Below, one piece after another: positions 35,698 through 56,125 of a DNA stretch of 64,000 bases (position 1 is the stretch's first letter; the number at the start of each line of letters is the position of its first letter). The DNA lies in the IMG/VR virus record IMGVR_UViG_3300009168_000004, positions 1-64,000 of that record. One strand, 5' to 3'. The notes below the pieces were generated by a model that was not told the origin of the DNA, did not search any database, and saw only the letters and a list, made by a program, of their open reading frames with translations. The DNA is from a virus. Position numbers and translations under genes: made by a program.

Positions 35698-36663
35698 TCA
35701 GCTCGGCTCGTCCCCGGAGATGCCGTCCAGGTAGCGAACAGCGCCCGGACGCCGGATCTCGAGGCCGGCGACGCGGAAGATGCCGGGGATGTCGTACACC
35801 AGGGGTCCGGTCTGCCACACGGGCAGGAAGCGATGCGGCATGGGAATGTGCATCTTGAGCACAGCCGGATCGCGGCGATACGCGACCATGCGGCCCGTCC
35901 CGCCAGTGCCCGCGTCTTCCAGTCCGCGGACGGCGCGGATGATGATCGGCCGGCCGGTCTGGAAGCTCACGATGTTCTTCGACGCGACGAAGTCCAGGAT
36001 CGTGAGGGTCGTGTCGGGGACGCGCTTCGACACCAGGATGGTCATGGCCTCACCCGGCAGGAGCAGCGTGTCCGCGTATTCGATCTGGGCTGAGCTGGTC
36101 CACATGCCAGTGAGGATGGCGTTGATGTCCGCCATGATCTCGTCGGCAGTCTTCGAGTCCCAGTCCGTCGAGCCCTCGGCGCCCTCGGCTGCCTGCACCG
36201 TGGTGATGCCAGGGTAGTCGATGATGCCGTGGAAGTTCTTGTCGCTCATGCCCCGGAGGGCAAGGTTGTCCACGAACTCCTCGTAGGCCCTGCGGGCTGC
36301 GGAGGCGCGCTCGGTGGTCAGGTTCGTGCCGGGGACCATCATGGCCTGGCCGAGCTCCTGCAGCGAGTATCGGTATCCGATGTCGGCCATCTCAACGCCC
36401 ACTTCGAACTGCGAGCGTTCGACGTCTGCGATGTGGATGTCCTTCGCGAGGTGGTGGAACCATCCCGCCTTGCCGACCTTGTCGCTCGAGAAGTACGTGA
36501 TCGACTTGGCCCACTCGTTGGCTGCCGTGTCGACCGGGATGAGCGTCGGATACTGTATCTCCGGATACTGGACCTCGACGACTTGGGGTTCGATGTAAGA
36601 CGTCTGCGACACCAGGAAGCCGAGGGCCTGCTGTGCCGCATCCGCCGAGTAGATATTGAACAT
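35698..36663 (-). CDS. major capsid protein (DUF2184 family, HK97 fold)
   Basis: IPV, GY.YS.QEL..A, W..KT.DEI..D and G.EIRRP.A..Y.DGI motifs. Confidence 0.9.
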   Translation of the reverse strand: MFNIYSADAAQQALGFLVSQTSYIEPQVVEVQYPEIQYPTLIPVDTAANEWAKSITYFSSDKVGKAGWFHHLAKDIHIADVERSQFEVGVEMADIGYRYSLQELGQAMMVPGTNLTTERASAARRAYEEFVDNLALRGMSDKNFHGIIDYPGITTVQAAEGAEGSTDWDSKTADEIMADINAILTGMWTSSAQIEYADTLLLPGEAMTILVSKRVPDTTLTILDFVASKNIVSFQTGRPIIIRAVRGLEDAGTGGTGRMVAYRRDPAVLKMHIPMPHRFLPVWQTGPLVYDIPGIFRVAGLEIRRPGAVRYLDGISGDEPS

Positions 36664-36742: not shown

Positions 36743-37231
36743 TCAGACGCCGTCGTTCTTCTCGAGGCCAGGGAAGTAGGCGATCGCACGCCCGTTCACC
36801 AAGGCACTGGTCTCCCAGCGGGCACCCTTGAGCGGACCGACGCCGCCGGTGTTCGAGAAGATGCCGGTGGTGCCGTCGAAGTGGACGGGGTCGCCAGCGT
36901 TGACCGCGACTGCAGGCTCGAGCCACATCATGCCGCGGCGGAGGACGCCGACGTTCTGATAGCGCTCGTACTTGTCGGGGTCGGTGGCGTAGGAGTTACG
37001 CATCGTGATGTCGCGGATGGACGCGCCGCGATAGAGGGCCAAGTCACCGCCGAGGATGACTGCGTTGTCGCCGAACGTGGCGATGGTCCCGCGGCTGACT
37101 GCCCGCCCGAACGGGATGCCCGTCTCGGGTTCGCAGTTCCCGGTGAACGCATCGGTCACGTCGTAGGAGCCGTGAACCGTACCCGGACCAGGCGGGCGAA
37201 TGGTCTCGACGTATTCAGTCTGGATGGGCAT
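36743..37231 (-). CDS. capsid decoration/cement protein
   Basis: IPFGRAV, V.VLR.G..W and V.AGDPV motifs; immediately upstream of MCP. Confidence 0.75.
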   Translation of the reverse strand: MPIQTEYVETIRPPGPGTVHGSYDVTDAFTGNCEPETGIPFGRAVSRGTIATFGDNAVILGGDLALYRGASIRDITMRNSYATDPDKYERYQNVGVLRRGMMWLEPAVAVNAGDPVHFDGTTGIFSNTGGVGPLKGARWETSALVNGRAIAYFPGLEKNDGV

Positions 37232-37321: not shown

Positions 37322-38545
37322 TCAGGCAGTTCCCTGCGGTGTCTTCCAAGCGTTCTGCATGCGGTTGTTGTAGTCGCTGTAGGACTTCTCTGCAGCCGCC
37401 CGGTCGCCCAGGACCGGCTGGCTGCCGCCGGTGAAGGCCGCCCTGGCGACATCGACTGCGCGGTTGGTGTCGACCGCCTTGACGCTTGCCGTGAGGGTGG
37501 CAAACGACGTGGCAACCTGCTCGTCGGTCCAGCCCTTGGCGACATCCTTGAGCGCGTGGTCGACGACCTGCCGGCGGATCTCCCCGTCGGTCTTGCCGTC
37601 CACCACCAGCTTGTCGCCGAGGATTGCAGCGGCCTTGCCCATGCAGATCGTGCGGTCGGCAACGAGCTGATCGAGCTGCTGCGGGGTCAGCTTGGCGCTG
37701 TCGAGCTGGCTCTTCAGCGTTGCGTTCTCCGCCGTTAGGGTGTCCTTGTCCTTCGACAGGGTGGTGACCTGGGCAGTCATGTCGGTGACCTGCTTGTTCA
37801 GGCTATCCGACACGCTCTTGTGCGTGGCCTCGAGCGCCTTCACCTGGTTGGCGGCGTTGTCGAGGGCGCGCTGCACGACTTGGATCGTCGTGTCGGTCAT
37901 CTCGCAGGTGATGCCGTCCACGGTCATTGTGCGCAGGTTCATTTGGTCTCTCCGGGTTGGGGGTGGTTCAGGCTCAGCGTCTTCGACGCCGAATGGCAGT
38001 TCGTCCCCGACGGATAGCCTGGCTCCGCCGCGGGCCGCTTTCACGAGGGCGATGTGGTTCGCCCGGATGTTGCGTTGGATGGCGTCGTAAGCCTCGCCGG
38101 TCGGCGTGGTGCCGGACGCAACCTCGATGTCGCACGAATACCCGACGGAGAGCTGTCGCTTGCCAGCCTCGATCGCCTTGACGGCGGACGAGTCCATGAA
38201 CAGCATCGGGACGCGGACGTATTCTTGATCTCGGAGGACGTCGCCGTCGCTCTGGCCGACCGCGTACTCGCTCCAGTTTTCGGAGGTGACCTCGACCTTC
38301 GGGTGGTCGTTGGTCAGGGGGCGGTGGGCGAGGGACGCCATCGCGTCCTTGTGGAAGACTTCGCTCTCAGGCCGGTAGACCCGGACGACGTCCTTGTCCG
38401 CCAGCTCGCCACCAATCTCCTTGCCGAGATAGAGTTGAATGCCGGTGCGCGAAACGCGGGGAGCAGCCGCCAGATAGCCCCCGGCCTTCTTGGACATGTG
38501 GGCGGCGTCGAAGGACAGCCGGTCGTACAGGTTCAGCTTGATCAT
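37322..38545 (-). CDS. DUF2213 prohead protease / scaffold
   Basis: RTGIQ.Y, YRP..EVF, T.DHP, LSVGY and NHIALV..ARGG motifs plus a coiled-coil C-terminus. Confidence 0.9.
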   Translation of the reverse strand: MIKLNLYDRLSFDAAHMSKKAGGYLAAAPRVSRTGIQLYLGKEIGGELADKDVVRVYRPESEVFHKDAMASLAHRPLTNDHPKVEVTSENWSEYAVGQSDGDVLRDQEYVRVPMLFMDSSAVKAIEAGKRQLSVGYSCDIEVASGTTPTGEAYDAIQRNIRANHIALVKAARGGARLSVGDELPFGVEDAEPEPPPTRRDQMNLRTMTVDGITCEMTDTTIQVVQRALDNAANQVKALEATHKSVSDSLNKQVTDMTAQVTTLSKDKDTLTAENATLKSQLDSAKLTPQQLDQLVADRTICMGKAAAILGDKLVVDGKTDGEIRRQVVDHALKDVAKGWTDEQVATSFATLTASVKAVDTNRAVDVARAAFTGGSQPVLGDRAAAEKSYSDYNNRMQNAWKTPQGTA

Positions 38546-38570
38546 GCAGCCTCCTTGCGGAGGCCAGGGA

Positions 38571-39305
38571 TCAGGGCCTCCAGTACCGCGAGACCCAGTA
38601 GTCTTCGCGGATGGTCTCGACCTGCCAGGGCTTCCGTCTGCCGTTGAAGAACATGATGCAGGTCCGCTTCGAGATCTCGCGGAGCTTGCGATAGTCGACC
38701 GAGTAGGAGGCCACCGTCGGATAGGTGAAGCCGTCGCACCCTTCGAGACCAACCAGGTTCATGCTCAGCCACGACTGGTCGGAGCCGAGCCACTTCTTCT
38801 TGAACGTCTGAGCTGGGCTGGTGGCCGGGTCGAACTTGGACCAGATGAAGTCGAGGTCTCCGGCTGTGAACATCTGCAGCGAGCCGTTGAAGACCTTCGG
38901 ATGGTGGGCACCCGCGCAGGCCCAGCCCATGAAGCGGAACTTCTCCGTGGACTCGATCATCGGGGTGATGTCGCGCATGATGATCGCGTCCAGGTCGATC
39001 CCCATGATGCGGTGCCCGTCCCGGATCTTCATCTGAAACTGGGTGGCCGGATCGTACAGCTTGAGCCGCCTGTAGCACGACGGCAAATTTCTTTTTGTGG
39101 CGTTGGCCAGGTCTGCACCGTCCGACCACAAGGGATGCGTCTCGCAGGCGAGACCAGTCGGATCGTCCGTGACGCAGACGATGCGATGGGGCACCTTCAC
39201 GTTGGCCTGCAGAGCCTTGACCATCGCGTTTACGTGCACAGCGGAGTAGGTCGCTCGGACTGGGTTCTTCCAGTCGGTCCACTTCCAGAGGACTATGTGC
39301 AGCAT
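38571..39305 (-). CDS. GT-A fold glycosyltransferase (GT8-like)
   Basis: CVTDD, DLD, FNGS, SDQ.W and F.G..KPW motifs. Confidence 0.8.
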   Translation of the reverse strand: MLHIVLWKWTDWKNPVRATYSAVHVNAMVKALQANVKVPHRIVCVTDDPTGLACETHPLWSDGADLANATKRNLPSCYRRLKLYDPATQFQMKIRDGHRIMGIDLDAIIMRDITPMIESTEKFRFMGWACAGAHHPKVFNGSLQMFTAGDLDFIWSKFDPATSPAQTFKKKWLGSDQSWLSMNLVGLEGCDGFTYPTVASYSVDYRKLREISKRTCIMFFNGRRKPWQVETIREDYWVSRYWRP

Positions 39306-42810: not shown

Positions 42811-43857
42811 TCACAGGTCCTCCGTCGTGAACCGTCGGTCGCGCGCAGGCACGAACACGCATCGGCAGTGCGGGTGCGCGGGGATCAAGCTGCGGGCAAC
42901 GTTGATGCGGTAGGGTCCCTCCTCGGCGATGTCTTCGCACTCCGGGCAGACCTCGTCGTCGCCGGCCGTCAGGACGTTGACGCGCTTCAGCTTCTCGATC
43001 GCCTCCTGCGCCTTCCTGATCCTGCGGACGGTCTCGCGGTGGGGCACCGTGGTCCGGCTGACCTTCGAGCCTGCCCCCGTGTTCGGATTGAACTTCCGCT
43101 TCTTGTCCTCGAAGAACGACACAGCGTCCTGCGCAGGGCGGCGGATCTTCCTGACCTCCGGGATGATGCCGACCTCGGTGACCCCGACGGACTCGTAGGA
43201 CGACAGGCTTCCTTCGTTGAATGTCCGCATGACGATCGTGTCAGCCAGGGCGTCGATGCGGGTTCCGCCCACCTTGTCGATGCGGGAGTACATCGCCCGG
43301 AGCAGGAGGTTCGCATTCTTCTTGGACAAGATCCCGTCGGCTGCAGCCCGAACCAGGTTCTGGCTGACCGCCTCGCTGATGCCCTGCAGCTCCACAAACG
43401 CAGACTGGACGATGGTGTCCACCCTGTCCCTGTGGTTCTCCGGCGACCTGGCGACGTTCAGATCCCGCGTGTTCCTGTCCGCGAACCGCAGCCCCTTCTC
43501 GAAGGCGCGCTCAACGTAGCCTGCCAGATACCGGCCATCGTGCTCGAGGACGTTCTGGGTCAGGGCGGAGTCGACGAACTGCTGGAAGCCCATGATCTTG
43601 GCTGGCCCAGCCGTGACCATGGCCGCGGCTGACATGCCCGAGAAGGCGGTCATGGGCTTCAGCCCGAGCGCGTCGTTGTCGATGATCTGCATCCGCAGCA
43701 GGGCGCGCAGCCGGTTCATGCGGATGGCCATGGCCGATCGCATGGCGGAGCGAATGGTCTTGGTCCCCGACGGGTCTCGGCTGGTCGGCTTGGCGTCCGA
43801 CAGGTAGGTGCAGCAGGAGCACCTGTCGTGGATGACCTCGTTCTTGTACTTCAGCAT
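42811..43857 (-). CDS. head morphogenesis protein (SPP1 gp7 / Mu gpF family)
   Basis: RDP..T N-terminus; TAGDDEVCPEC...IPAHPHCRC. Confidence 0.85.
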   Translation of the reverse strand: MLKYKNEVIHDRCSCCTYLSDAKPTSRDPSGTKTIRSAMRSAMAIRMNRLRALLRMQIIDNDALGLKPMTAFSGMSAAAMVTAGPAKIMGFQQFVDSALTQNVLEHDGRYLAGYVERAFEKGLRFADRNTRDLNVARSPENHRDRVDTIVQSAFVELQGISEAVSQNLVRAAADGILSKKNANLLLRAMYSRIDKVGGTRIDALADTIVMRTFNEGSLSSYESVGVTEVGIIPEVRKIRRPAQDAVSFFEDKKRKFNPNTGAGSKVSRTTVPHRETVRRIRKAQEAIEKLKRVNVLTAGDDEVCPECEDIAEEGPYRINVARSLIPAHPHCRCVFVPARDRRFTTEDL

Positions 43858-46573: not shown

Positions 46574-49500
46574 TTATCTATACTCCTTGATTATAACTCC
46601 ACCACTGCCACCACTGCCGCCAAGAACTCCAACATTTTCATTCACTGAATAGCCAGCAGAACCGCCGCCACCGGGGAATTGTCCACCGCCACCGGCCACT
46701 AGATAATCCCCCACCTTTCCGCCAGAGCCGCCCATCGGTGCATTGCCGCCGACGCCCGGAAGCACGAACGTTGGAGTCATGCTGCCAACAGCCCACGTTC
46801 CGGGAGCGCCCGCGATGTTAAGGTCGCCGCCTGAACTCGTCCCGCCCGCGCCACCAGCGATGTTGCTAACTGCGCCACCGGCTCCACTCGTGCCGCCGCC
46901 ACCACCGCCAGCGGTCAACAAGTCTCCGAATGTCGTAGTGCCGCCAACTGCTGCGCCACCACCACCAGCGCCGATCGTCACGGTTTGCGTCGTTGGTGAA
47001 TTGATGCGCTTGCGAGCGTATCCGCCTGACCCGCCGCCGCCTCCGGTAGAGACCTGCCCCGCGGTTGTCGCGCCACCATTGCCGCCGCCGCCACCGCCGC
47101 CCCATGCTTCCACAACGATGAAAGCAACATCGTCGCTTGACGGCGACCACTCGCCGCTTGCTGTGATGATGGTCTCGCCGATCAGCAAACCATCACCGGG
47201 CAGCACGCCCTGAATGGCGACACTCCATGCATCAGACGCCACGCGCATCGTCACGTCCTGCCAGAAATAGTTACCCTCTCCGTAATTGGTTCTAGGACAG
47301 CCCGCGCCGGAAGTCGTGTACGTCGCAAGCACGTACGTAACTTCATCTGGATACTGTGCGGCTGGCGGTGGGGTCGTCATAAAATAATTGTCGTCATCGC
47401 GGGCAATGCAAATGAAAGTACCGGCAGCAACGTTGGCTGGCACTTCAAGCGCAGCCTCCACCCATCCCTCACCGATGCTTTCATCGGTCATGACGGTGGT
47501 GCCGATAAGCACGTCGAAATCGAAGTCATAAAGAAAGAGTTGTCGCGTTGATACTGCTGACGGAGCGCCCGACCTGTAGAACCTTAGATGCGTTATCTGA
47601 CAATCCACATTCATCAAAAGGACGGTACCAAAGCGAAGGTTCGCGGCCTCGACAGTTGTCGAAGGTACAGCGGCATCCGGGAAAATGTGATGGGCTGCTC
47701 CGAGTGCACTTTCTGTATCCTTCGGGCCATACAGAGCATGACCTTCTGTGTCGATGTAGTAATCTCCATCAAGCCCAAGACTGCTGGCAGGGGGACCGAC
47801 GCCGTCATGAATGATGGCTCCCGTCGCCTGTATGGCAACCGGCCACGTCTCGCCCAAAGACATGTACTGCCATTCAAGGTCGGTGCCGTAGTTGTATGGG
47901 GCCTCGTAGCCACTAGGAGGAAAGACGTCCGGGCCGTCGCCGACACCCATGCGGATGCCGAAGTGAACGGCGGCATCAGGATTGGTTGGTACCGGGGCAA
48001 CGGTTTGCGCGTAAGCTAGAGCATCAAAGGAAGCGACAATCGCCAAGTGCTGATCGGCCACAACAGGAATTGGAGCGGGGAAGGCGGCGGACACCCAACC
48101 GTCAAAGCCCGCAGTCTCAACCGTCGCATTGGTTACACCAAGCAGCGTCCCCGTCGTTCCGTCGTACAGATAAAGTTGCCGCGTCGTATTTGCAGAAGTG
48201 GGGTTGCGCCGAAACTTCGCGCTGATGACCTGCCCATCAACGAGTGCGATGAACTCGTTGCCGACCACTAATGGATTTGGGTCGAACTCCCACAAGGGAG
48301 GTTCGGTCAACATGAACTCTGGGTCCAGCATCACGGCTTCGAACTTCGGGCCGTAAAGCGTGTCCGTGTCCGTATCGATGTAGTAGTCGCCGCCCTCGCC
48401 CAGCGCATCGTCGGGCAGGCCTGTGCCTGAATGAATTGTCTGGCCGCTGCCGCCGCCGCCTCCGGTTCCTGGTATGCCTTGTGGACCTTGCGGTCCCTCC
48501 GGACCTTCAGGTCCAGCAGGACCTGCGGCACCGTCAACGCCGTCAGCTCCATCTGCACCATCAGCACCGGGCACGCCCTGGATGCCCTGAGGTCCTGCCG
48601 GGCCCACCGCTCCGTCAGCACCGGCAGGTCCTTCAGGTCCTTCAGGTCCAGCCGGTCCGGCTTCTCCGAGGGGGACCGCCACCGTCTCGACCCACTGGAT
48701 GGTGTCGCCGTCGTCGTAGTTGATGAAGAGAACGCCGATCGAGCTGTCCCACCACAGCGCGCCGACGGGCGCACCGACGGGGGCGGTGTCGCTGATGATG
48801 ATGATCGAAGCGTCGCCCCCTCCCGTGCCTGGCTCACCTTGCGGACCTTCAGGACCCATCGGCCCTTCAGGTCCCATCGGTCCCACATCGCCGGTATCTC
48901 CCTTCGGACCCTGAGATCCGTCTGCTCCATCTGCTCCAGGAGGGCCTGCTACGCCGTCAGCGCCAGCAGGACCAGCAGGACCAGCAGGGCCAGCACTGCC
49001 GTCAGCACCAGCAGGACCTTGCAGTCCAGGTTCACCGTCATCTCCCTTTGGTCCTTCTGGTCCTTCTGGTCCTTCTGGTCCTGTCGCTCCGTCGATGCCC
49101 GTCGGTCCCTGGGGTCCCTCGGGTCCAGGAGCACCTGGAGCACCGGGTTCTCCTGGGTCGCCCTTCTCGCCCACGGTCCGGAGGAGGACGGTGATGGCCT
49201 GGTTGGCTGCGAACACGCCGGAGCCCGACGCGGACACGAACTCGACGGGCACCGTGAAGTAGTCTGCGAGGTTGGTGGCCGGCGCAGTCATCCGCCAGAC
49301 CTGGTTGCTCAGAGCGAAGTCCCGGTCCTGGATGATGAACTCGTCGTCGGTGTTGGCGAGGGACAGGAGGACGGACAGGTCGAAGTCGTCCTGCGTGATC
49401 CAGTCGACCGACAGCATGGTGGCGGCCTGCTGGTCTGTGTTGTTCCAGCGCAGCTTGCCGGTGCCGGGGTCCGCCATCGCCACCGAACTTGTGTCGGCCC

Positions 49501-49903
49501 GGTAGTGGAAGACCGAGGTCGAAGCCCCCTGCTCCCCGGTGGCGCCAGTCTCACCCGGCGGGCCCTGGTCGGCGGCGTCGCCGAACACGGTCGACTGGGC
49601 TGGCCCCAGGGTCCGGACCCGCAGAGGAGCGACGATCGCCCCGTCGTTGTGCTGGAGGAAGACGAGGACCTGCTCCGACGGGTCGTCGTTGTACACGGTC
49701 ACCAGCTCGACCGTCCGGAGGATGCCCGCCCCAGGCGAGGGCGACGCCACGACGGTGCCCCCGCCCGCGTCCGCGACGATCGTGTTGAGCCTCCCCGGCG
49801 TGATCGTGTCGTCGATGGTGGTCTTGTCGACCCACGACGCGTGGACGCGCGCCGCCCTGTCGGTGACGACCTCCAGCGTGTCGCCCTCCTGGAGTATCAG
49901 CAT
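46574..49903 (-). CDS. collagen-like fibre protein with two DUF4082-like domains and a Gly-rich C-terminal domain
   Basis: two long G-X-Y tracts; G.G.P....G..GDYYIDT....LYGPK twice; WGGGGGG domain. Confidence 0.85.
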
Positions 49904-52524
49904 CAGGTTGCCTCATCTTCGCTGTCGTCTTCGTCCTCAGTGATCCGCTCGAACTCTTTGATGCGGCCCTTCTCGTCGTGCTTCGTGACCGTCGTGATCT
50001 CCCGCCCGCCCCTGTTGACGATGGTCACGGGGACGGTGACGTGGATCGTCTGCTCGTCCTTCGGGGCGCGCTTGCTGAGGGCGGTCGCCGCGTCCTTCTG
50101 GGTCTTGAAGTTCCCGATCTTCCCGTTCTTGTCGTCGGCCCTCCACCTCACCGCCTCGCCCCGTCCCGACGCGACCGCACCCCCTGCGCCGCCGGACCTC
50201 TGCTCGTTCGTGACGACCTGCTTGACGGTGCCCACCTTGGTGTTGCCCTTGTAGGCGTTGTAGGACTTGAGCTTGACCGGCGCCTCCTTGCCCAGGACCT
50301 TGGTCTCGCGGTTGTGGTCGGAGGCCTCGTACATGTCCAGGCCTGCGACCTGGCCGGCGAACTTGCCCTTCTCGGTGGTCTCTCCGACCTTGGGCGCAGC
50401 CGCTGCCGCCCCTCCGCCCCCGCCCGATCCGAACTGCCCGTTCTCTGCTCGCTCCTGGTTCTCGTTGTACTCGTCCAGGGCCACCTCGGGGACGTCGGTC
50501 TCGTTGTTGAAGCCCGTCATCTGGATCTCCTGGAAGACCTCGGGCCCGAGGACGATCTCGCCCCGGTAGGGCTCCATCTCGTCGATCTGCTCAGGCCCGT
50601 TGTAGGTGATCGTGACGTGCGGGTTGTAGTCCTCGTAGTCGTACGAGCAGCCCTGGTGCTTCAAGGAGGAGTGGCGCCAGGACAGGTCGGAGTTGCCGAA
50701 GGCGAGGACGACAGCCTTGCCGAACCTCTCGACGATGCGGGGTCCGCCGGGGACGACGCGGATGTGCCCCTCCAGGTCCTGGCCCCAGGCCTCGCCCATC
50801 TTGATCCAGTCGACCGCCTCCTTCGAGTACATGATCGTGACGTGCATCTCGGCCGGGGTGACCGTGGACTTGAAGCCCTGCGAGGCCGCCCAGTCGATGA
50901 TGGCCTGCGCGTTCAGCACCCTGCGGTAGACGTAGAGGGGCTTCGGGGTCGCGTCGGCGAGGGCGTCCCGGACGGCGGCGTTGCCCGACGGGGTCCGCAT
51001 CCTGTCCCTGCCCTTGATCCTGCGGCGCCGCTGGGCAGCCCGGAAGTCGTTGGCCGCCCTCTTGGCCGGGTCCAGGTTGCTGTTGGCGGGCTCGGGCAGA
51101 TCCGCGTCTGGGTCCTCGGGGTCCACCTCGGCGTTCGGGTCAGCGTTCGGATCGACCACGGGCTCAGGTTCTGCGCGCAGACCCTCCTCGTGGTCTGGGT
51201 CGTCGAACTCCTCGATGATCTGCTCGATGCCTGGGTAGGTTCCGTCCTCGATGAGCTGCGCCTCCCTGGCCTTCTTGAGCACCACCGGGTCCAGGATCGC
51301 GGCATCCACGTCCACCTTGAACGTGTCGGCCTTCTTCTTCTCCAGGTCAGCCTTCTGCTCCGGCGTCATCTGCCAGAGGGAGTTCCACACGTAGAAGATC
51401 TCCTCGGGCTTGGAGCCGAGGGCGGACCGGATCAAGACTTCGTCCAGGCGCCAGAGCACCGGGGAGTCGTCGTTCTTCTGCTTCGAGGAGACCGAGTCGT
51501 AGTAGTTCCTGGTGTCGCTCTCGCCCGTCGCGCTCATGCCCGCGGGGGACTGGCCGAAGAAGCGGGTCGCCGGGATGTCGGCTGCGCCGCAGACCATCAG
51601 GAAGTACATCTGCAGGATCTCGGGCAGGGACGCGAACGAGGCCACCTGCCTCTGCCACTCCTCCTCCTTGTCGATCAGGAGCATGGAGTGCACGCCCTTG
51701 ATGATGTTGGCGAGGCCGAACCGCTCGAGCAGGTTCCGCTCGTAGGTCCTGGATGAGATGTTCAGCGTCAGCCCTGGGATCTTGATGATGTCGATCTTCG
51801 ACTCCGCCACGAGCTGAGCCACCGACGCAGTCACCAGGCCGCAGGACTTGATGGCGTCGGCGACGTTCAGCAGGACGGAGTCGCCCCAGGGCTGCTTGGT
51901 CGTCAGGACGTCCTGTCTCGGCATCCCGACGAAGGGGACGACGCGGCTCGGGTGGAAGCGGACCAGGGTGCCGTTGAACAGGGAGTGGCGCTCGTAGTAG
52001 GAGGGCTCACCGTACCAGGGCGAGGTGATGTCGTCGATCATGGGGCCAGGCGACACGTCCCAGCGGCTCACCGGGTGCAGGAACTCCAGGTCTCCGACCC
52101 TGACCGCCTCGATGTCCACCGGGGTCTCGTTGGATGCGCCCTTGATGCCCATGACGATGCCGGCGCCCCCGTAGAGCCGAGCCTTCTGCTTGGCCACCTT
52201 CATCTTCTGCTGCAGGCCAAGGCGCTGCTCCTCCGCCTCGATCGCCGTGATCTCCTCCGGGTCGCCGGCCTGCCAGGACCGCCACTCCCTGGTGGCGTCC
52301 TCCGCCGGAATGTCGATGAGCTTCCGGGCGATCCAGTCGCCGCGGTAGGCCGCGTCGGCCTGCGCCTGGTCCATGTCCGGCATGACCCAGTTGACGCCGG
52401 TCATCTTGTCCTTGGCCGTGCCGAGGCCCGTCGCCAGGTTCTCCAGGCTGTCCCGCGCAGACTTCTGGCTCGGTGGGGGCTTGGATGCCCGACGGGTTGG
52501 TGCGGAAGCTGCTCTCTTAGCCAT
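49903..52524 (-). CDS. portal protein (DUF1073) fused to an Acb1-like 2H phosphoesterase and further C-terminal modules
   Basis: follows TerL; RLYGG, HPSRV and IP.TR.FGQSP.G.SATGE.D..NYYD portal motifs; HVTIMYS and PHVTITY. Confidence 0.88.
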
Positions 52525-54070
52525 CTGTGTTACCCCTGACCCAACTGAGCGATGTGTCGTAGTTGTAGGTCTTCTCGATCATCTTGTTGAAGGCGCCGGC
52601 CGAAGCGTCCACCTGGTCCTTGAACTGGCCCGACGGGAAGGCTTCGTGCTCGTTGATGAAGTCCCGGTTCCACTTCTTTCGCAGGAGCTTGACGTTGCCT
52701 GCCTGCACCGCAGCCGCGTAGGGCTCGGCCCGGACCTCCTTCTTGCCGGTCACCCGGTCGATGAAGCAGAGGTGCCCGTGCAGGTTGGCGACCGTGCGCT
52801 GCGCGCTCTCCTTGCCGCCGGACCCCGGCTCCTGCTCCACGTAGACGACGGTCCGCTGGATGCTGTCGTCCAGCTCGGCCGTCGCCTTGATCTTGGTCTC
52901 TCGGGTGTAGGCGTCCCACTGGCCCCGGACGACGTCCTCGACGATCACGGTGCCGTCGGCCATCTGGTTCATGAGCACGCCCGCCGTGTGGGCGCCGCCT
53001 CCGGACGTGCCGGCCTTGTCCCAGTACCTGACCCGCTTCTTGATCTCGGACTGGGGGAACGAGCCGATGATGCGCATCTCCTCGATGGGGAACATGCCGC
53101 CGCCCTGGATGATCGGGTTCTGCTGATACAGGCTCTCCCACGAGACTTCGGTGTAGGTCTTCCGCTGCTCCAGGAGGAACTCCAGGGACTTGAACTCTGG
53201 GAACAGGGCCTCGCCGACGGACCGGGGCTCGCAGTTCACCCGGATCGACTCCTCGGTGGCGAAGGCCGGGTAGCGGAGGATGGTCATGTCGGGGAAGCGC
53301 TCGATCAGTCGGCCGGCGGGGTCGTCCACGTGCCACCTGGTGACGGTCATGAGCATGCCCGCCCGGTCGTCGAACCGGGACATGAAGTCGTCCGTCATCC
53401 AGGACCAGGTCTTGTCTCGGATGGTCGGCGACTGCGCCTCGCCCCGGCCCTTGATCGGATCGTCGACCACGCCGAAGTCCAGCGACTTCCCGGTGATCTG
53501 CCCGTCGGGGGCGGTCGTGTTCTCGAAGTAGCCCTTGCGCCCGACGAAGTGCATCAGGTGGCTGTTCCGCTGGTACTGGCCCGCGTACTCGCCGCCGCCC
53601 TTCAGGGGCAGGATGCGCGTGTCCGGGAACGCCCTCTTGAAGCGATCGTCCTCGAACCGCCTCTGCAGCTCCGTGTTGGTCTTCGTGCCCAGGTCGCCCG
53701 AGTACGATGCGAAGATCGTCCGGAAGTCGGGCTCGTGCCCGTGGAACCAGGACACCCCGTCCTGCACGCTCCTGGACTTTCCATGTTGCGGCGGAGCCAT
53801 CAGGAGCAGCTTCGGCCGGTGGCCGTTCTTCAGGCGGATGAAGAACCTCTGCAGGAGGCCGCTGACCTGGCGCGGCCACCAGCCGACCCGCATCTCGGGG
53901 TCCATCATCTTGCGGTAGGCGTACAGGTTCTCCCTGGCCTCCGCCGCTTGCAGGTCCATGATCAGGTCCAGGTCCTGCTGGGTGAACCTGGGGCGGTTGC
54001 GGCTGTCGTGCTCTGCGCGGGCGATGGCCTCCCTGATCTGCTCCTTGCGGGGGTTGTGCGCGTCCATCAT
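52517..54070 (-). CDS. terL: terminase large subunit
   Basis: APPQHGKS Walker A, VVDDPIK Walker B, TRWH.DD, RYWD.A, EQEPGSGGK and DQVDA motifs. Confidence 0.95.
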   Translation of the reverse strand: MMDAHNPRKEQIREAIARAEHDSRNRPRFTQQDLDLIMDLQAAEARENLYAYRKMMDPEMRVGWWPRQVSGLLQRFFIRLKNGHRPKLLLMAPPQHGKSRSVQDGVSWFHGHEPDFRTIFASYSGDLGTKTNTELQRRFEDDRFKRAFPDTRILPLKGGGEYAGQYQRNSHLMHFVGRKGYFENTTAPDGQITGKSLDFGVVDDPIKGRGEAQSPTIRDKTWSWMTDDFMSRFDDRAGMLMTVTRWHVDDPAGRLIERFPDMTILRYPAFATEESIRVNCEPRSVGEALFPEFKSLEFLLEQRKTYTEVSWESLYQQNPIIQGGGMFPIEEMRIIGSFPQSEIKKRVRYWDKAGTSGGGAHTAGVLMNQMADGTVIVEDVVRGQWDAYTRETKIKATAELDDSIQRTVVYVEQEPGSGGKESAQRTVANLHGHLCFIDRVTGKKEVRAEPYAAAVQAGNVKLLRKKWNRDFINEHEAFPSGQFKDQVDASAGAFNKMIEKTYNYDTSLSWVRGNTDG

Positions 54071-55158
54071 CAGAATGCAAAGCTCACGTTGGTGGCTTCG
54101 ACCTTGTCGACGTCGAGCGGGTCGTCCGGGTCCGTCTTGAACGTGATCGAGACCGTGATCGTGCCTGGCCCCCTCTTGGTCTCCCCCGTGTTGAAGGTCT
54201 TGTAGACCCCGGCCATCTCGTCCTCCGGGAAGCGCCCGACGTCGTCGTGGTCGACGTTCGGCGGGAAGAAGGCCGGGGCGCCTGCGTAGAAGTCGACGTC
54301 GGCGTTGAAGATGTCGTCGGTCGCGACGTCCTCGGGCTGAACCACCGGCCACGCCTCGTACCCCATGACCTTCAGGTACCGGGCGAACCAGAGCTTGCCC
54401 TCGTAGCTGGCCTTGCCGCCGATCGCCCCCGGACGGGACCAGGTCACGTCGAAGGTCACCACCTTCTGGCCGACGGCGACAGCGGCAGACTTGAGGGCGT
54501 CGTAGGCGATCCAGATCAGGCGCGTGCCCGGACCGACGGTCTGGGTCTTGGACGCTCCGACCTCGTCGTGGCCGGCAGTCTCGGTCAGCAGGAAGATGTC
54601 CCAGTTGAAGCCGGCCAGGCCGATGTCCGTCGCGATCGACATGGCGAGGACGTTCGAGTAGAGCGAGCTGGCATCGTCGGGCGCAGTGTAGTCTGAGCCG
54701 CCCGCTCCATTCCACGAGACTGTGAACGGCACCTCCTGCTCGCCGAACGGATCGAAGCCGGAGGAGCAGATCGCCCCGGTCAGCGTGTCGATGAGGACGT
54801 ACTCACCGGCGTCGATCACGTGGAAGGTCAGCCCGGAGAAGACCTTCGACCTGGGGTCGGCCACCGCAGGGAACGCGTGGAACTTGTTGGGGGCTGCGGT
54901 GAAGGCGGGCACGGGGTCGGCTTCGCTGCCCGGAGGGGCAGACACCTTCTCTGGGAACGGGCCGTAGGCCAGGACGCCGTCCTGCCAGCCGAACCAGGGG
55001 AAGTCCGACTGCAGAGTGATGCGGACGCTGGGGTCCGTGCCCCCCGACGGGATGCTCGAGTCGACCTGCCCCATGCCCTGGACGAACAGCAGGAGATACC
55101 GGCCTCCGGGCCAGTTCACGTTCACCAGGTGCTGGGTGGGGTCGTGGGCTAGCGGCAT
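54070..55158 (-). CDS. hypothetical, probable virion protein
   Basis: 362-aa acidic beta-rich ORF starting MPLAHDPTQHLVNVNW; TGATG-coupled on both sides. Confidence 0.7.
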   Translation of the reverse strand: MPLAHDPTQHLVNVNWPGGRYLLLFVQGMGQVDSSIPSGGTDPSVRITLQSDFPWFGWQDGVLAYGPFPEKVSAPPGSEADPVPAFTAAPNKFHAFPAVADPRSKVFSGLTFHVIDAGEYVLIDTLTGAICSSGFDPFGEQEVPFTVSWNGAGGSDYTAPDDASSLYSNVLAMSIATDIGLAGFNWDIFLLTETAGHDEVGASKTQTVGPGTRLIWIAYDALKSAAVAVGQKVVTFDVTWSRPGAIGGKASYEGKLWFARYLKVMGYEAWPVVQPEDVATDDIFNADVDFYAGAPAFFPPNVDHDDVGRFPEDEMAGVYKTFNTGETKRGPGTITVSITFKTDPDDPLDVDKVEATNVSFAF

Positions 55159-55835
55159 CAGCGTGCAGTCCGGCCGAAGGTTCGCTTTGGGAGGTAGCTG
55201 TCGGCCCCTGGGGGCTTGCGGAGGGGCTGGACGCTGGCCCGGTGGTGATACGGGCAGTAGGCCAGCGGACGCGCTCGGCTGGCCCCTGAGGCCCGTGGCG
55301 CGTCGCACACCAGCCCGTCGGGCATCGGCCACTGGCAGCGATCGCCCTCGGGGACGGTGGCATCCCCTGCCGAGGTCGCCATCGGACCCTCGAGGCTGGC
55401 GGCTCCCTTGGTTTCCTTGGACTTCGGAGGCCTCACCTGGTCGATCTGCATGGTCCTGGACACAAACACGGTGGTGTTCCCCATCCCCATGTTGACCCTG
55501 CCAGCCCGAGGCTCAGGTCCGGTCTGAGTGTCCTGGGACTTGTAGTTCGCCTTGGCTCTGACCCTGCTGATCTGACGCATCTTCACGTCCATCCGCACGC
55601 CAGTTGCCCTGCCGGCGGTCCTCGGATACTTCTTCTGCAGGTCGAGGCGGTGGATCTTGCCCCCGACGGCAGAGATCGTGAAGGTGACACAGGAGCGGGG
55701 GAACTCCGCCCGCATCGCCTTGACGATCTTGGCGATCGTCAGGTAGGCCCCGCGCGTGCCCGAGTACAGGAGCTCGAGGTGCGCGATCTCCTGAGAGGTC
55801 CACCTGCTGTTCGGGGAGTCGGTCTTTGTCATCAT
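55158..55835 (-). CDS. gcrA: GcrA-like cell-cycle regulator
   Basis: WT..EI..L..L, T.SAV.GKIHRL.L and CQWP...C...YCPYH motifs. Confidence 0.8.
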   Translation of the reverse strand: MMTKTDSPNSRWTSQEIAHLELLYSGTRGAYLTIAKIVKAMRAEFPRSCVTFTISAVGGKIHRLDLQKKYPRTAGRATGVRMDVKMRQISRVRAKANYKSQDTQTGPEPRAGRVNMGMGNTTVFVSRTMQIDQVRPPKSKETKGAASLEGPMATSAGDATVPEGDRCQWPMPDGLVCDAPRASGASRARPLAYCPYHHRASVQPLRKPPGADSYLPKRTFGRTAR

Positions 55836-56125
55836 CAACAGAAGTCTCGTTTTGTTGCGTACAAGTTTAACGACCAATCCTCATGGTCTTTCTACGTTGA
55901 CAGCATTCTCGTTTTCCTGACAGCAATTGCATCCTTCTGTTCTCATGACCTTTCTACGTTGACAGGAACTTCGTTTTGGAACCAGCAATTGCATCCTTCT
56001 TTTCTCATGACCTTTTGGGGTTAACAGAAATCTCGTTTTCCGCGTTGCAATTGCATGCTTCAGTTCTCATGGTCTTTTGGGGTTGACAGAAATCTCGTTT
56101 TGACCCGTAGAAGTTTAACTGATCC

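Follow-up and report, generated by a model that had tools for sequence, protein, structure and literature searches.

A portal protein extended by an Acb1-family 2H phosphoesterase domain and a 205-residue tail in an uncultured 75-kb phage

Acb1, known from T4 (gene 57B) and from Erwinia phage FBB1 (7T26/7T27), is a free protein of ~150 amino acids that destroys the signals used by CBASS, an antiphage signalling system based on cyclic oligonucleotides, and a tetrad formed by two HxT motifs, H44/T46/H113/T115, was shown to be catalytic in it (Hobbs et al. 2022, PMC9117128). Fusions of 2H domains to MuF or to portal proteins are described by Iyer et al. (2017, PMC5512222), who argued that they are packaged and injected and proposed for them either an RNase-like role or the degradation of nucleotides produced by nucleotide-activated defence systems. 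The portal gp3 of cyanophage Pam3 (8HDS, solved in the virion, 621 amino acids) is likewise made up of a portal-family region followed by an Acb1-like domain. Here, a stretch of 64,000 nucleotides was analysed, comprising positions 1 to 64,000 of IMG/VR record IMGVR_UViG_3300009168_000004 and referred to below as the window. It derives from an uncultured 75-kb phage with a genome G+C content of 65% and carries a gene of 873 codons for a portal protein in which an Acb1-family domain forms the third segment, followed by a tail of 205 residues. The gene and the segments considered first are listed below, with residues numbered on the 873-residue reading.

49903 to 52524, minus strand, stop codon included: the whole gene for the portal-Acb1-tail protein of 873 amino acids, from the list of open reading frames (ORFs).
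51205 to 52458, minus strand: portal domain, residues 23-440, spanning the clip, stem, wing, crown and barrel region (PF06381, TIGR01555 and the Pam3 portal 8HDS).
50965 to 51204, minus strand: linker, residues 441-520, an acidic proline-rich stretch and then a basic patch of 12 residues (sequence and isoelectric point, pI).
50509 to 50964, minus strand: 2H phosphoesterase domain of the Acb1 family, residues 521-672, with F672 as its putative lid aromatic (PF23474, 7T26, structure model and Foldseek).
50836 to 50844, minus strand: first catalytic HxT, H561-V-T563, in HVTIMYS, aligned to H44/T46 of Acb1.
50611 to 50619, minus strand: second catalytic HxT, H636-V-T638, in PHVTITY, aligned to H113/T115 of Acb1.

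The Phage_portal_3 family (PF06381) was matched at residues 55-403 with an E-value of 2.5e-99 in Pfam, and TIGR01555, the HI1409 family of NCBIfam, with an E-value of 2.1e-76 and 257 bits against a cutoff of 196. The Pam3 portal 8HDS could be aligned at residues 23-439 (domain E 1.9e-96), and the PHROG 146 'portal protein' profile covered residues 17-667 (E 6.5e-136). With a full-length profile match and the large terminase gene directly upstream, the protein is the portal of a Pam3/E217-like head module, the genes of which run in the order terminase, portal, DUF2213 protease-scaffold, cement protein and PF09950 capsid protein.

The segment beyond the linker was assigned to PF23474 (Acb1) at residues 529-668, corresponding to window positions 50521-50940, with an E-value of 4.3e-36 and 124.2 bits against a cutoff of 27, over profile positions 2-138 of 144. 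A sequence match to the solved FBB1 Acb1 (7T26) gave an E-value of 1.6e-9, and the T4-type gene 57B product, recovered by tblastn against cultured phages, yielded the same alignment of the tetrad. Across an alignment of 77 relatives H561, T563 and H636 were invariant and T638 was conserved in at least 90%; Y531 (the equivalent of Y12), R534, W573, R596, R617 and E662 were invariant also. Aromatic residues are kept at the positions of both Y12 and F107 of Acb1, the latter as Tyr.

A model of the region was built with AlphaFold2 (AF2) from a multiple sequence alignment, replacing a single-sequence run in which the Acb1 part had reached a mean predicted local distance difference test score (pLDDT) of 45. 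In the alignment-based model pLDDT was 90-98 across residues 528-668, and the top PDB matches obtained with Foldseek were 7T26/7T27 (template modelling score, TM, 0.75-0.77; E 7e-9; 26-28% identity), followed by the phosphodiesterase of Burkholderia phage BCSR5 and then by LigT. Judged by profile, aligned tetrad and predicted 2H fold, membership of the domain in the Acb1 family of 2H phosphoesterases, with an intact catalytic tetrad, is well supported. A sequence-only reading of the window, made without database searches, had proposed a portal carrying an Acb1-like 2H phosphoesterase at about 50520-50950, with the motifs HVTIMYS and PHVTITY and an acidic linker before it, and this held throughout: the Pfam envelope coincides almost exactly with the proposed domain and both motifs fall upon the Acb1 tetrad. 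The 18-residue motif and the further basic domain that it had placed after the enzyme were recovered as residues 686-703 and 721-822 (pI 10.0), respectively.

Fusion of a portal to an Acb1 domain is real, very common and not new, since the PHROG 146 portal profile already spans the enzyme region. Residues 500-873 were used as the query of a homologue search that returned 83 proteins. Nearly all of these metagenomic relatives, some of them labelled 'anti-CBASS protein Acb1 family protein' by NCBI, combine PF23474 with a portal, and three portal families (PF06381, PF04860 and PF06074) are represented. The other partners of PF23474 were DUF2213 protease-scaffold proteins or ART, Zeta-toxin, NUDIX, His_Phos and ART-PolyVal modules; all anchors of these fusions are head-internal proteins. 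The long form was present in 36 records of cultured phages, including Pseudomonas phages phiPSA1, MR15 and psageK9, many Rhizobium RHEph/RHph phages (e.g. RHEph04-06), Synechococcus phages (e.g. Ssp-JY39), Pam3, Sinorhizobium phage HMSP1-Susan and Aminobacter phage Erebus. The sequence-only reading had itself taken similar fusions to be probably present in databases. In DSS3P8, vB_RpoS-V10 and vB_EpM_ZHS the Acb1 domain lies within the annotated prohead protease.

A close described counterpart is that of Pam3, with which the protein shares a portal of the same family and then an Acb1-like domain, with an overall E-value of 3e-133 and domain 2 placed at 461-611, and with which the head module shares a DUF2213 protease, a gp6-type cement protein and a PF09950 capsid protein. 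In phiPSA1 the gene order is identical: terminase, portal-Acb1, protease and capsid. The portals of Pam3, phiPSA1, RHEph04-06 and Ssp-JY39 stop right after the enzyme, however, whereas the present protein continues for 205 residues, and in contrast to those phages a collagen/DUF4082 fibre cassette here separates the portal from the remaining head genes. Both the architecture and the idea of interference with signalling have been in print since 2017 (PMC5512222); the special feature of this locus is its tail, which is modestly unusual. As in the polyvalent and other head-anchored effectors of that work, an effector enzyme is fused to a head protein in a phage of the portal-terminase type, and a portal, an Acb1 domain and a further module were found in one ORF inside the head module. 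The protein may be regarded as a small portal-anchored 'polyvalent' protein, with one enzyme and one module of no assigned function.

On balance, the protein is probably a portal-borne Acb1-family enzyme directed against CBASS-type signals. [quoted passage not shown] The C-terminus of the present portal, pointing into the capsid, is extended by a flexible linker and by the Acb1-family enzyme, the substrates of which are predicted to be, most likely, 3'-5'-linked cyclic di- and trinucleotide signals of the CBASS type. Cleavage would proceed by metal-independent acid-base catalysis, as in T4 and FBB1 Acb1, and would blunt abortive-infection signalling; a classical Acb1 is expected not to cleave cyclic tetra-adenylate, cA4 (PMC9117128). 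Being part of the portal, the enzyme and the tail would be late products, present in 12 copies in each procapsid, and would come to lie inside the head, the enzyme at the inner face of the portal vertex.

According to preprints, CBASS is set off late, by prohead-protease activity and by assembly proteins, and late synthesis of the enzyme would coincide with the activity of this reported trigger. The sequence-only reading had stated as established that T4 Acb1 degrades CBASS cyclic nucleotides and that CBASS can respond to late or structural phage products, both in accordance with the literature (PMC9117128 and the preprints on the prohead-protease trigger, respectively). It had further suggested that anti-defence activity is produced in step with head assembly or is packaged and delivered at infection. 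As to where and when the enzyme acts we too can only infer, and the analysis does not decide between these two modes, which are not mutually exclusive. Late action, by a cytoplasmic or procapsid-tethered pool, has something approaching an even chance: portal protein in the cytoplasm and open procapsids would degrade the signals at the time CBASS is triggered, which fits the fusion of the Acb1 domain to the protease-scaffold protein itself. It is more doubtful that the enzyme is severed from the portal within the head and leaves together with the DNA, the course suggested for polyvalent proteins (PMC5512222); this mode fits the co-occurrence of the domain on the same chain with the injected-effector domains ART, Zeta and NUDIX.

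Several points weigh against this reading of a portal-borne anti-CBASS enzyme, some of them against delivery in particular. The portal remains in the virion, no cleavage site between the portal and Acb1 was identified in the 873-residue sequence, and most relatives, of ~600-650 amino acids, terminate straight after the enzyme and lack a tag of the kind described below. The Pam3 virion paper mentions neither an extra domain nor cleavage of gp3, and a literature search found no functional test, biochemical or genetic, of a portal-fused Acb1 domain. Three positions that contact the ligand in Acb1 are not fully retained here: W74, which with Y12, F107 and W147 makes up the nucleobase-stacking aromatics, has no equivalent, the adenine contact E141 is aligned to Q665 with E666 adjacent, and the lid residue W147 is aligned to G671 with F672 one position off, the lid position being occupied by E-D/N-W in most relatives. 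Lastly, viral 2H groups differ in substrate and some were inactive on 18 signalling nucleotides (preprint 10.1101/2025.08.21.671373), so the fold by itself does not tell what the substrate is.

Those inactive groups and the loosely kept ligand contacts also lend some weight to a rival reading, in which the portal carries an enzyme that targets RNA or RNA ends, whether a 2',3'-cyclic phosphodiesterase like LigT, an RNase like Usb1 or an enzyme that degrades 2'-5' oligoadenylate, and that acts on host or phage RNA. Structures of LigT are the next structural neighbours of the model, and RNase-like or 2'-5'-oligoadenylate roles were put forward as alternatives for portal- and MuF-fused 2H domains by Iyer et al. 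(2017, PMC5512222). The profiles argue otherwise, as the 124 bits scored by Acb1 compare with 13.6 bits for LigT_PEase (PF02834; cutoff 23.3) and 13.4 bits for 2_5_RNA_ligase2 (PF13563; cutoff 27), both below threshold; the best matches in sequence and in fold are to Acb1 proteins, and no RNA ligase partner was found among the scanned genes of the head module and its neighbours. An RNA-directed role is accordingly considered improbable.

The linker that joins the enzyme to the portal is acidic overall (pI 4.6), ends in the basic patch and is poorly conserved in the alignment of relatives; the first ten residues modelled, 509-518, had a mean pLDDT of 56. Within it, in the stretch 50983-51018 of the window (minus strand), the ATG of Met509 is directly preceded by the purine-rich, AAGGG-like AAGGGCAGGGACAGG, and the boundary of the Acb1 domain lies just downstream. 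Initiation at this codon would release a free protein of 365 residues, consisting of Acb1 plus tail, in which case gene economy, not capsid loading, would explain part of the fusion. The case for such a start amounts to one weak sequence cue in a genome of 65% G+C, in a stretch of poor conservation, and production of the free protein is rated as very unlikely. The segment that distinguishes the protein from its shorter relatives, residues 669-873, begins at the other end of the enzyme and can be divided as follows.

50410 to 50478, minus strand: junction or 'head-cargo' tag, residues 683-705, LDE and then Y-N-E-N-Q-E-R and onward, defined by its recurrence in other proteins.
50107 to 50361, minus strand: basic beta-rich domain, residues ~722-806, pI ~10, with beta-hairpins in the AF2 model (pLDDT 63-87).
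49906 to 50106, minus strand: C-terminal module, residues 807-873, composed of a helix, a V-x-V-x-V strand, a hairpin (pLDDT 81-93) and an acidic end, defined from aligned C-termini.

No match to the tail was found in Pfam, PHROG or NCBIfam, and sub-pieces searched at E-values of up to 10 returned only a non-significant DUF6927. When the tail was compared exhaustively with 1.84 billion representatives by phmmer, matches arose only through the 25-residue tag, apart from a single 54-residue match to the C-terminal module. Almost nothing came from word-indexed searches in which the tag or the module alone was the query, an effect of the word index that is not evidence of absence.

The tag occurs in two to four copies per protein, 110-300 residues apart, in the multi-module proteins P0084-P0088, of which P0086 bears ART and NUDIX modules; it was found also in P0003, P0004, P0014, P0070 and P0080. 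In two proteins it lies ~20 residues from the N-terminus, so that it looks like the header of the module that follows. The residue ahead of its aromatic first position does not vary between the copies in one protein and is K, N or D/E from protein to protein, the present protein reading L-D-E and then Y. Such a pattern is what a site for a lineage-matched protease would look like. The portal holds the only copy in a credible gene of the window; HDDVGRF at 54229-54249, the only other match in an unbroken frame on the strand of the gene, is weak and was taken as chance. Term searches of PMC5512222 turned up neither the tag nor the C-terminal module, and a literature search with the tag as a string returned unrelated papers only.

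The basic domain is shared only with P0014. A fold search with it gave a best VIA Z of 5.3 (YkuJ), which is within noise, and TM values below 0.5 in the ESM Atlas. A reading as an AP2- or integrase-SAM-like DNA-binding domain (Z ~3.7-3.9, TM ~0.3) was dropped, as it had no profile support and the helix counted towards it belongs to the C-terminal module. That module could be aligned with the extreme C-termini of P0002, P0004, P0005, P0007, P0014 and P0066, and it stands at the very end of these six portal-Acb1 proteins with long tails, irrespective of the insert that precedes it. P0089, a stand-alone metagenomic protein of 54 amino acids, matches it with a helix, a VNVTVPVTV strand, a TKVTKHD-KGRILEFE hairpin and an acidic end, indicating that a gene of its own can encode the module.

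The conservation of this module independently of the enzyme, and the capacity of the basic domain (pI 10) and of the basic patch in the linker to touch packaged DNA, would suit an appendage within the portal that organises DNA or aids head assembly, with domain and tail mainly structural and catalysis irrelevant. A purely structural role would not lead one to expect the conservation of the tetrad that was observed across 77 diverse relatives and three portal families, and the Acb1 domain occurs on carriers other than portals. The chance that catalysis is irrelevant is therefore rated as very small.

The internal proteins of T4 (Alt and IPI-III) are provided with a capsid-targeting leader, in which the gp21 prohead protease cleaves after L/I-x-E. 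The present protein resembles them in that a short tag heads a cargo module, and L-D-E followed by Y fits the L-x-E rule; it differs in that the carrier is the portal itself, in that the protease is of DUF2213 type and in that cleavage is a prediction from sequence. A mimic of the protease site shared with the capsid protein or the protease was also sought, and for this the boundary of an N-terminal propeptide in the PF09950 capsid protein could not be defined. Because the tag stands after Acb1, and elsewhere at the head of modules, it would flag the basic tail and not Acb1 as cargo; the tagged tail is the piece likeliest to be released. Taken together, these features suggest, as a tentative proposal that is more apt to fail than to hold, an undescribed capsid-cargo code in which the tag is a loading leader, cleavage by the head protease falls immediately ahead of it (here following L-D-E) and the C-terminal module docks, such that the portal would deliver a new basic protein of ~20 kDa and Acb1 would stay tethered. 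If this were true, the novelty would lie in the tag system as a whole and not in this locus, which adds a clean example of a head-cargo junction tag on a portal together with a conserved C-terminal module.

Were the enzyme active, the phage would be one more with a nuclease for immune signals on a head protein, placed either at the time and place of the reported CBASS trigger or in the compartment from which proteins are injected. Whether a portal-tethered Acb1 works late in the cytoplasm or is delivered is a general question, better approached in cultured relatives such as phiPSA1, the Rhizobium RHEph phages and Pam3 than in this metagenomic phage.

The gene at 49903-52524 is a single intact ORF on the minus strand. 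Its ATG at 52524 gives an overlap of 8 nt with the stop codon of the large terminase (ATGGCTAA), and at the other end a single base is common to its TGA and the ATG that opens the next gene (TGATG). From these overlaps at both ends, the terminase, the portal-Acb1 gene and the 1109-residue gene that follows look translationally coupled. The G+C content at third codon positions (GC3) is uniformly high, at 0.85-0.98 in all segments, and thus gives no hint that the ORF results from a frameshift artefact or was grafted recently. In the public gene call, P0001, the protein is of 833 amino acids and begins at Met41, the extra 40 residues corresponding to window positions 52405-52524. As homology to the Pam3 portal extends already from residue 23, that start is 40 residues too late, and on sequence grounds the upstream ATG that overlaps the terminase stop is the better one. 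The remaining genes assigned in and around the head module are given below.

46574 to 49903, minus strand: gene of 1109 amino acids after the portal, bearing collagen repeats and two stretches of DUF4082, with a glycine-rich domain at the C-terminus.
42811 to 43857: MuF/gp7-like protein.
37322 to 38752, minus strand: DUF2213 head-maturation protease with a coiled-coil scaffold tail.
36743 to 37231: cement protein of Pam3 gp6 type.
35698 to 36663: PF09950 capsid protein.

The collagen/DUF4082 gene is appendage-like and is placed within the head module. Upstream of the portal, the longest terminase ORF (52517-54715, minus strand) has a GTG start and encodes 732 amino acids. Its Arg/Gly/Pro-rich N-terminal part looks non-coding, the Pfam terminase domains are confined to the last ~520 residues, and ORF 54070-55332 overlaps its upstream part. 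A protein of 239 amino acids at 55158-55877 (minus strand) gave a weak match to the cell-cycle regulator GcrA (E 5.7e-5), short of the threshold set by Pfam. Alphaproteobacteria typically have GcrA, and this match, together with portal relatives named from Rhizobium and Tropicimonas, may point to an alphaproteobacterial host. In the DUF2213 protease ORF the first ~68 residues are of low complexity and rich in Arg, Ser and Pro, and translation probably begins at the Met of MIKLNLYDRL instead; in its C-terminal half the protein resembles a coiled-coil scaffold.

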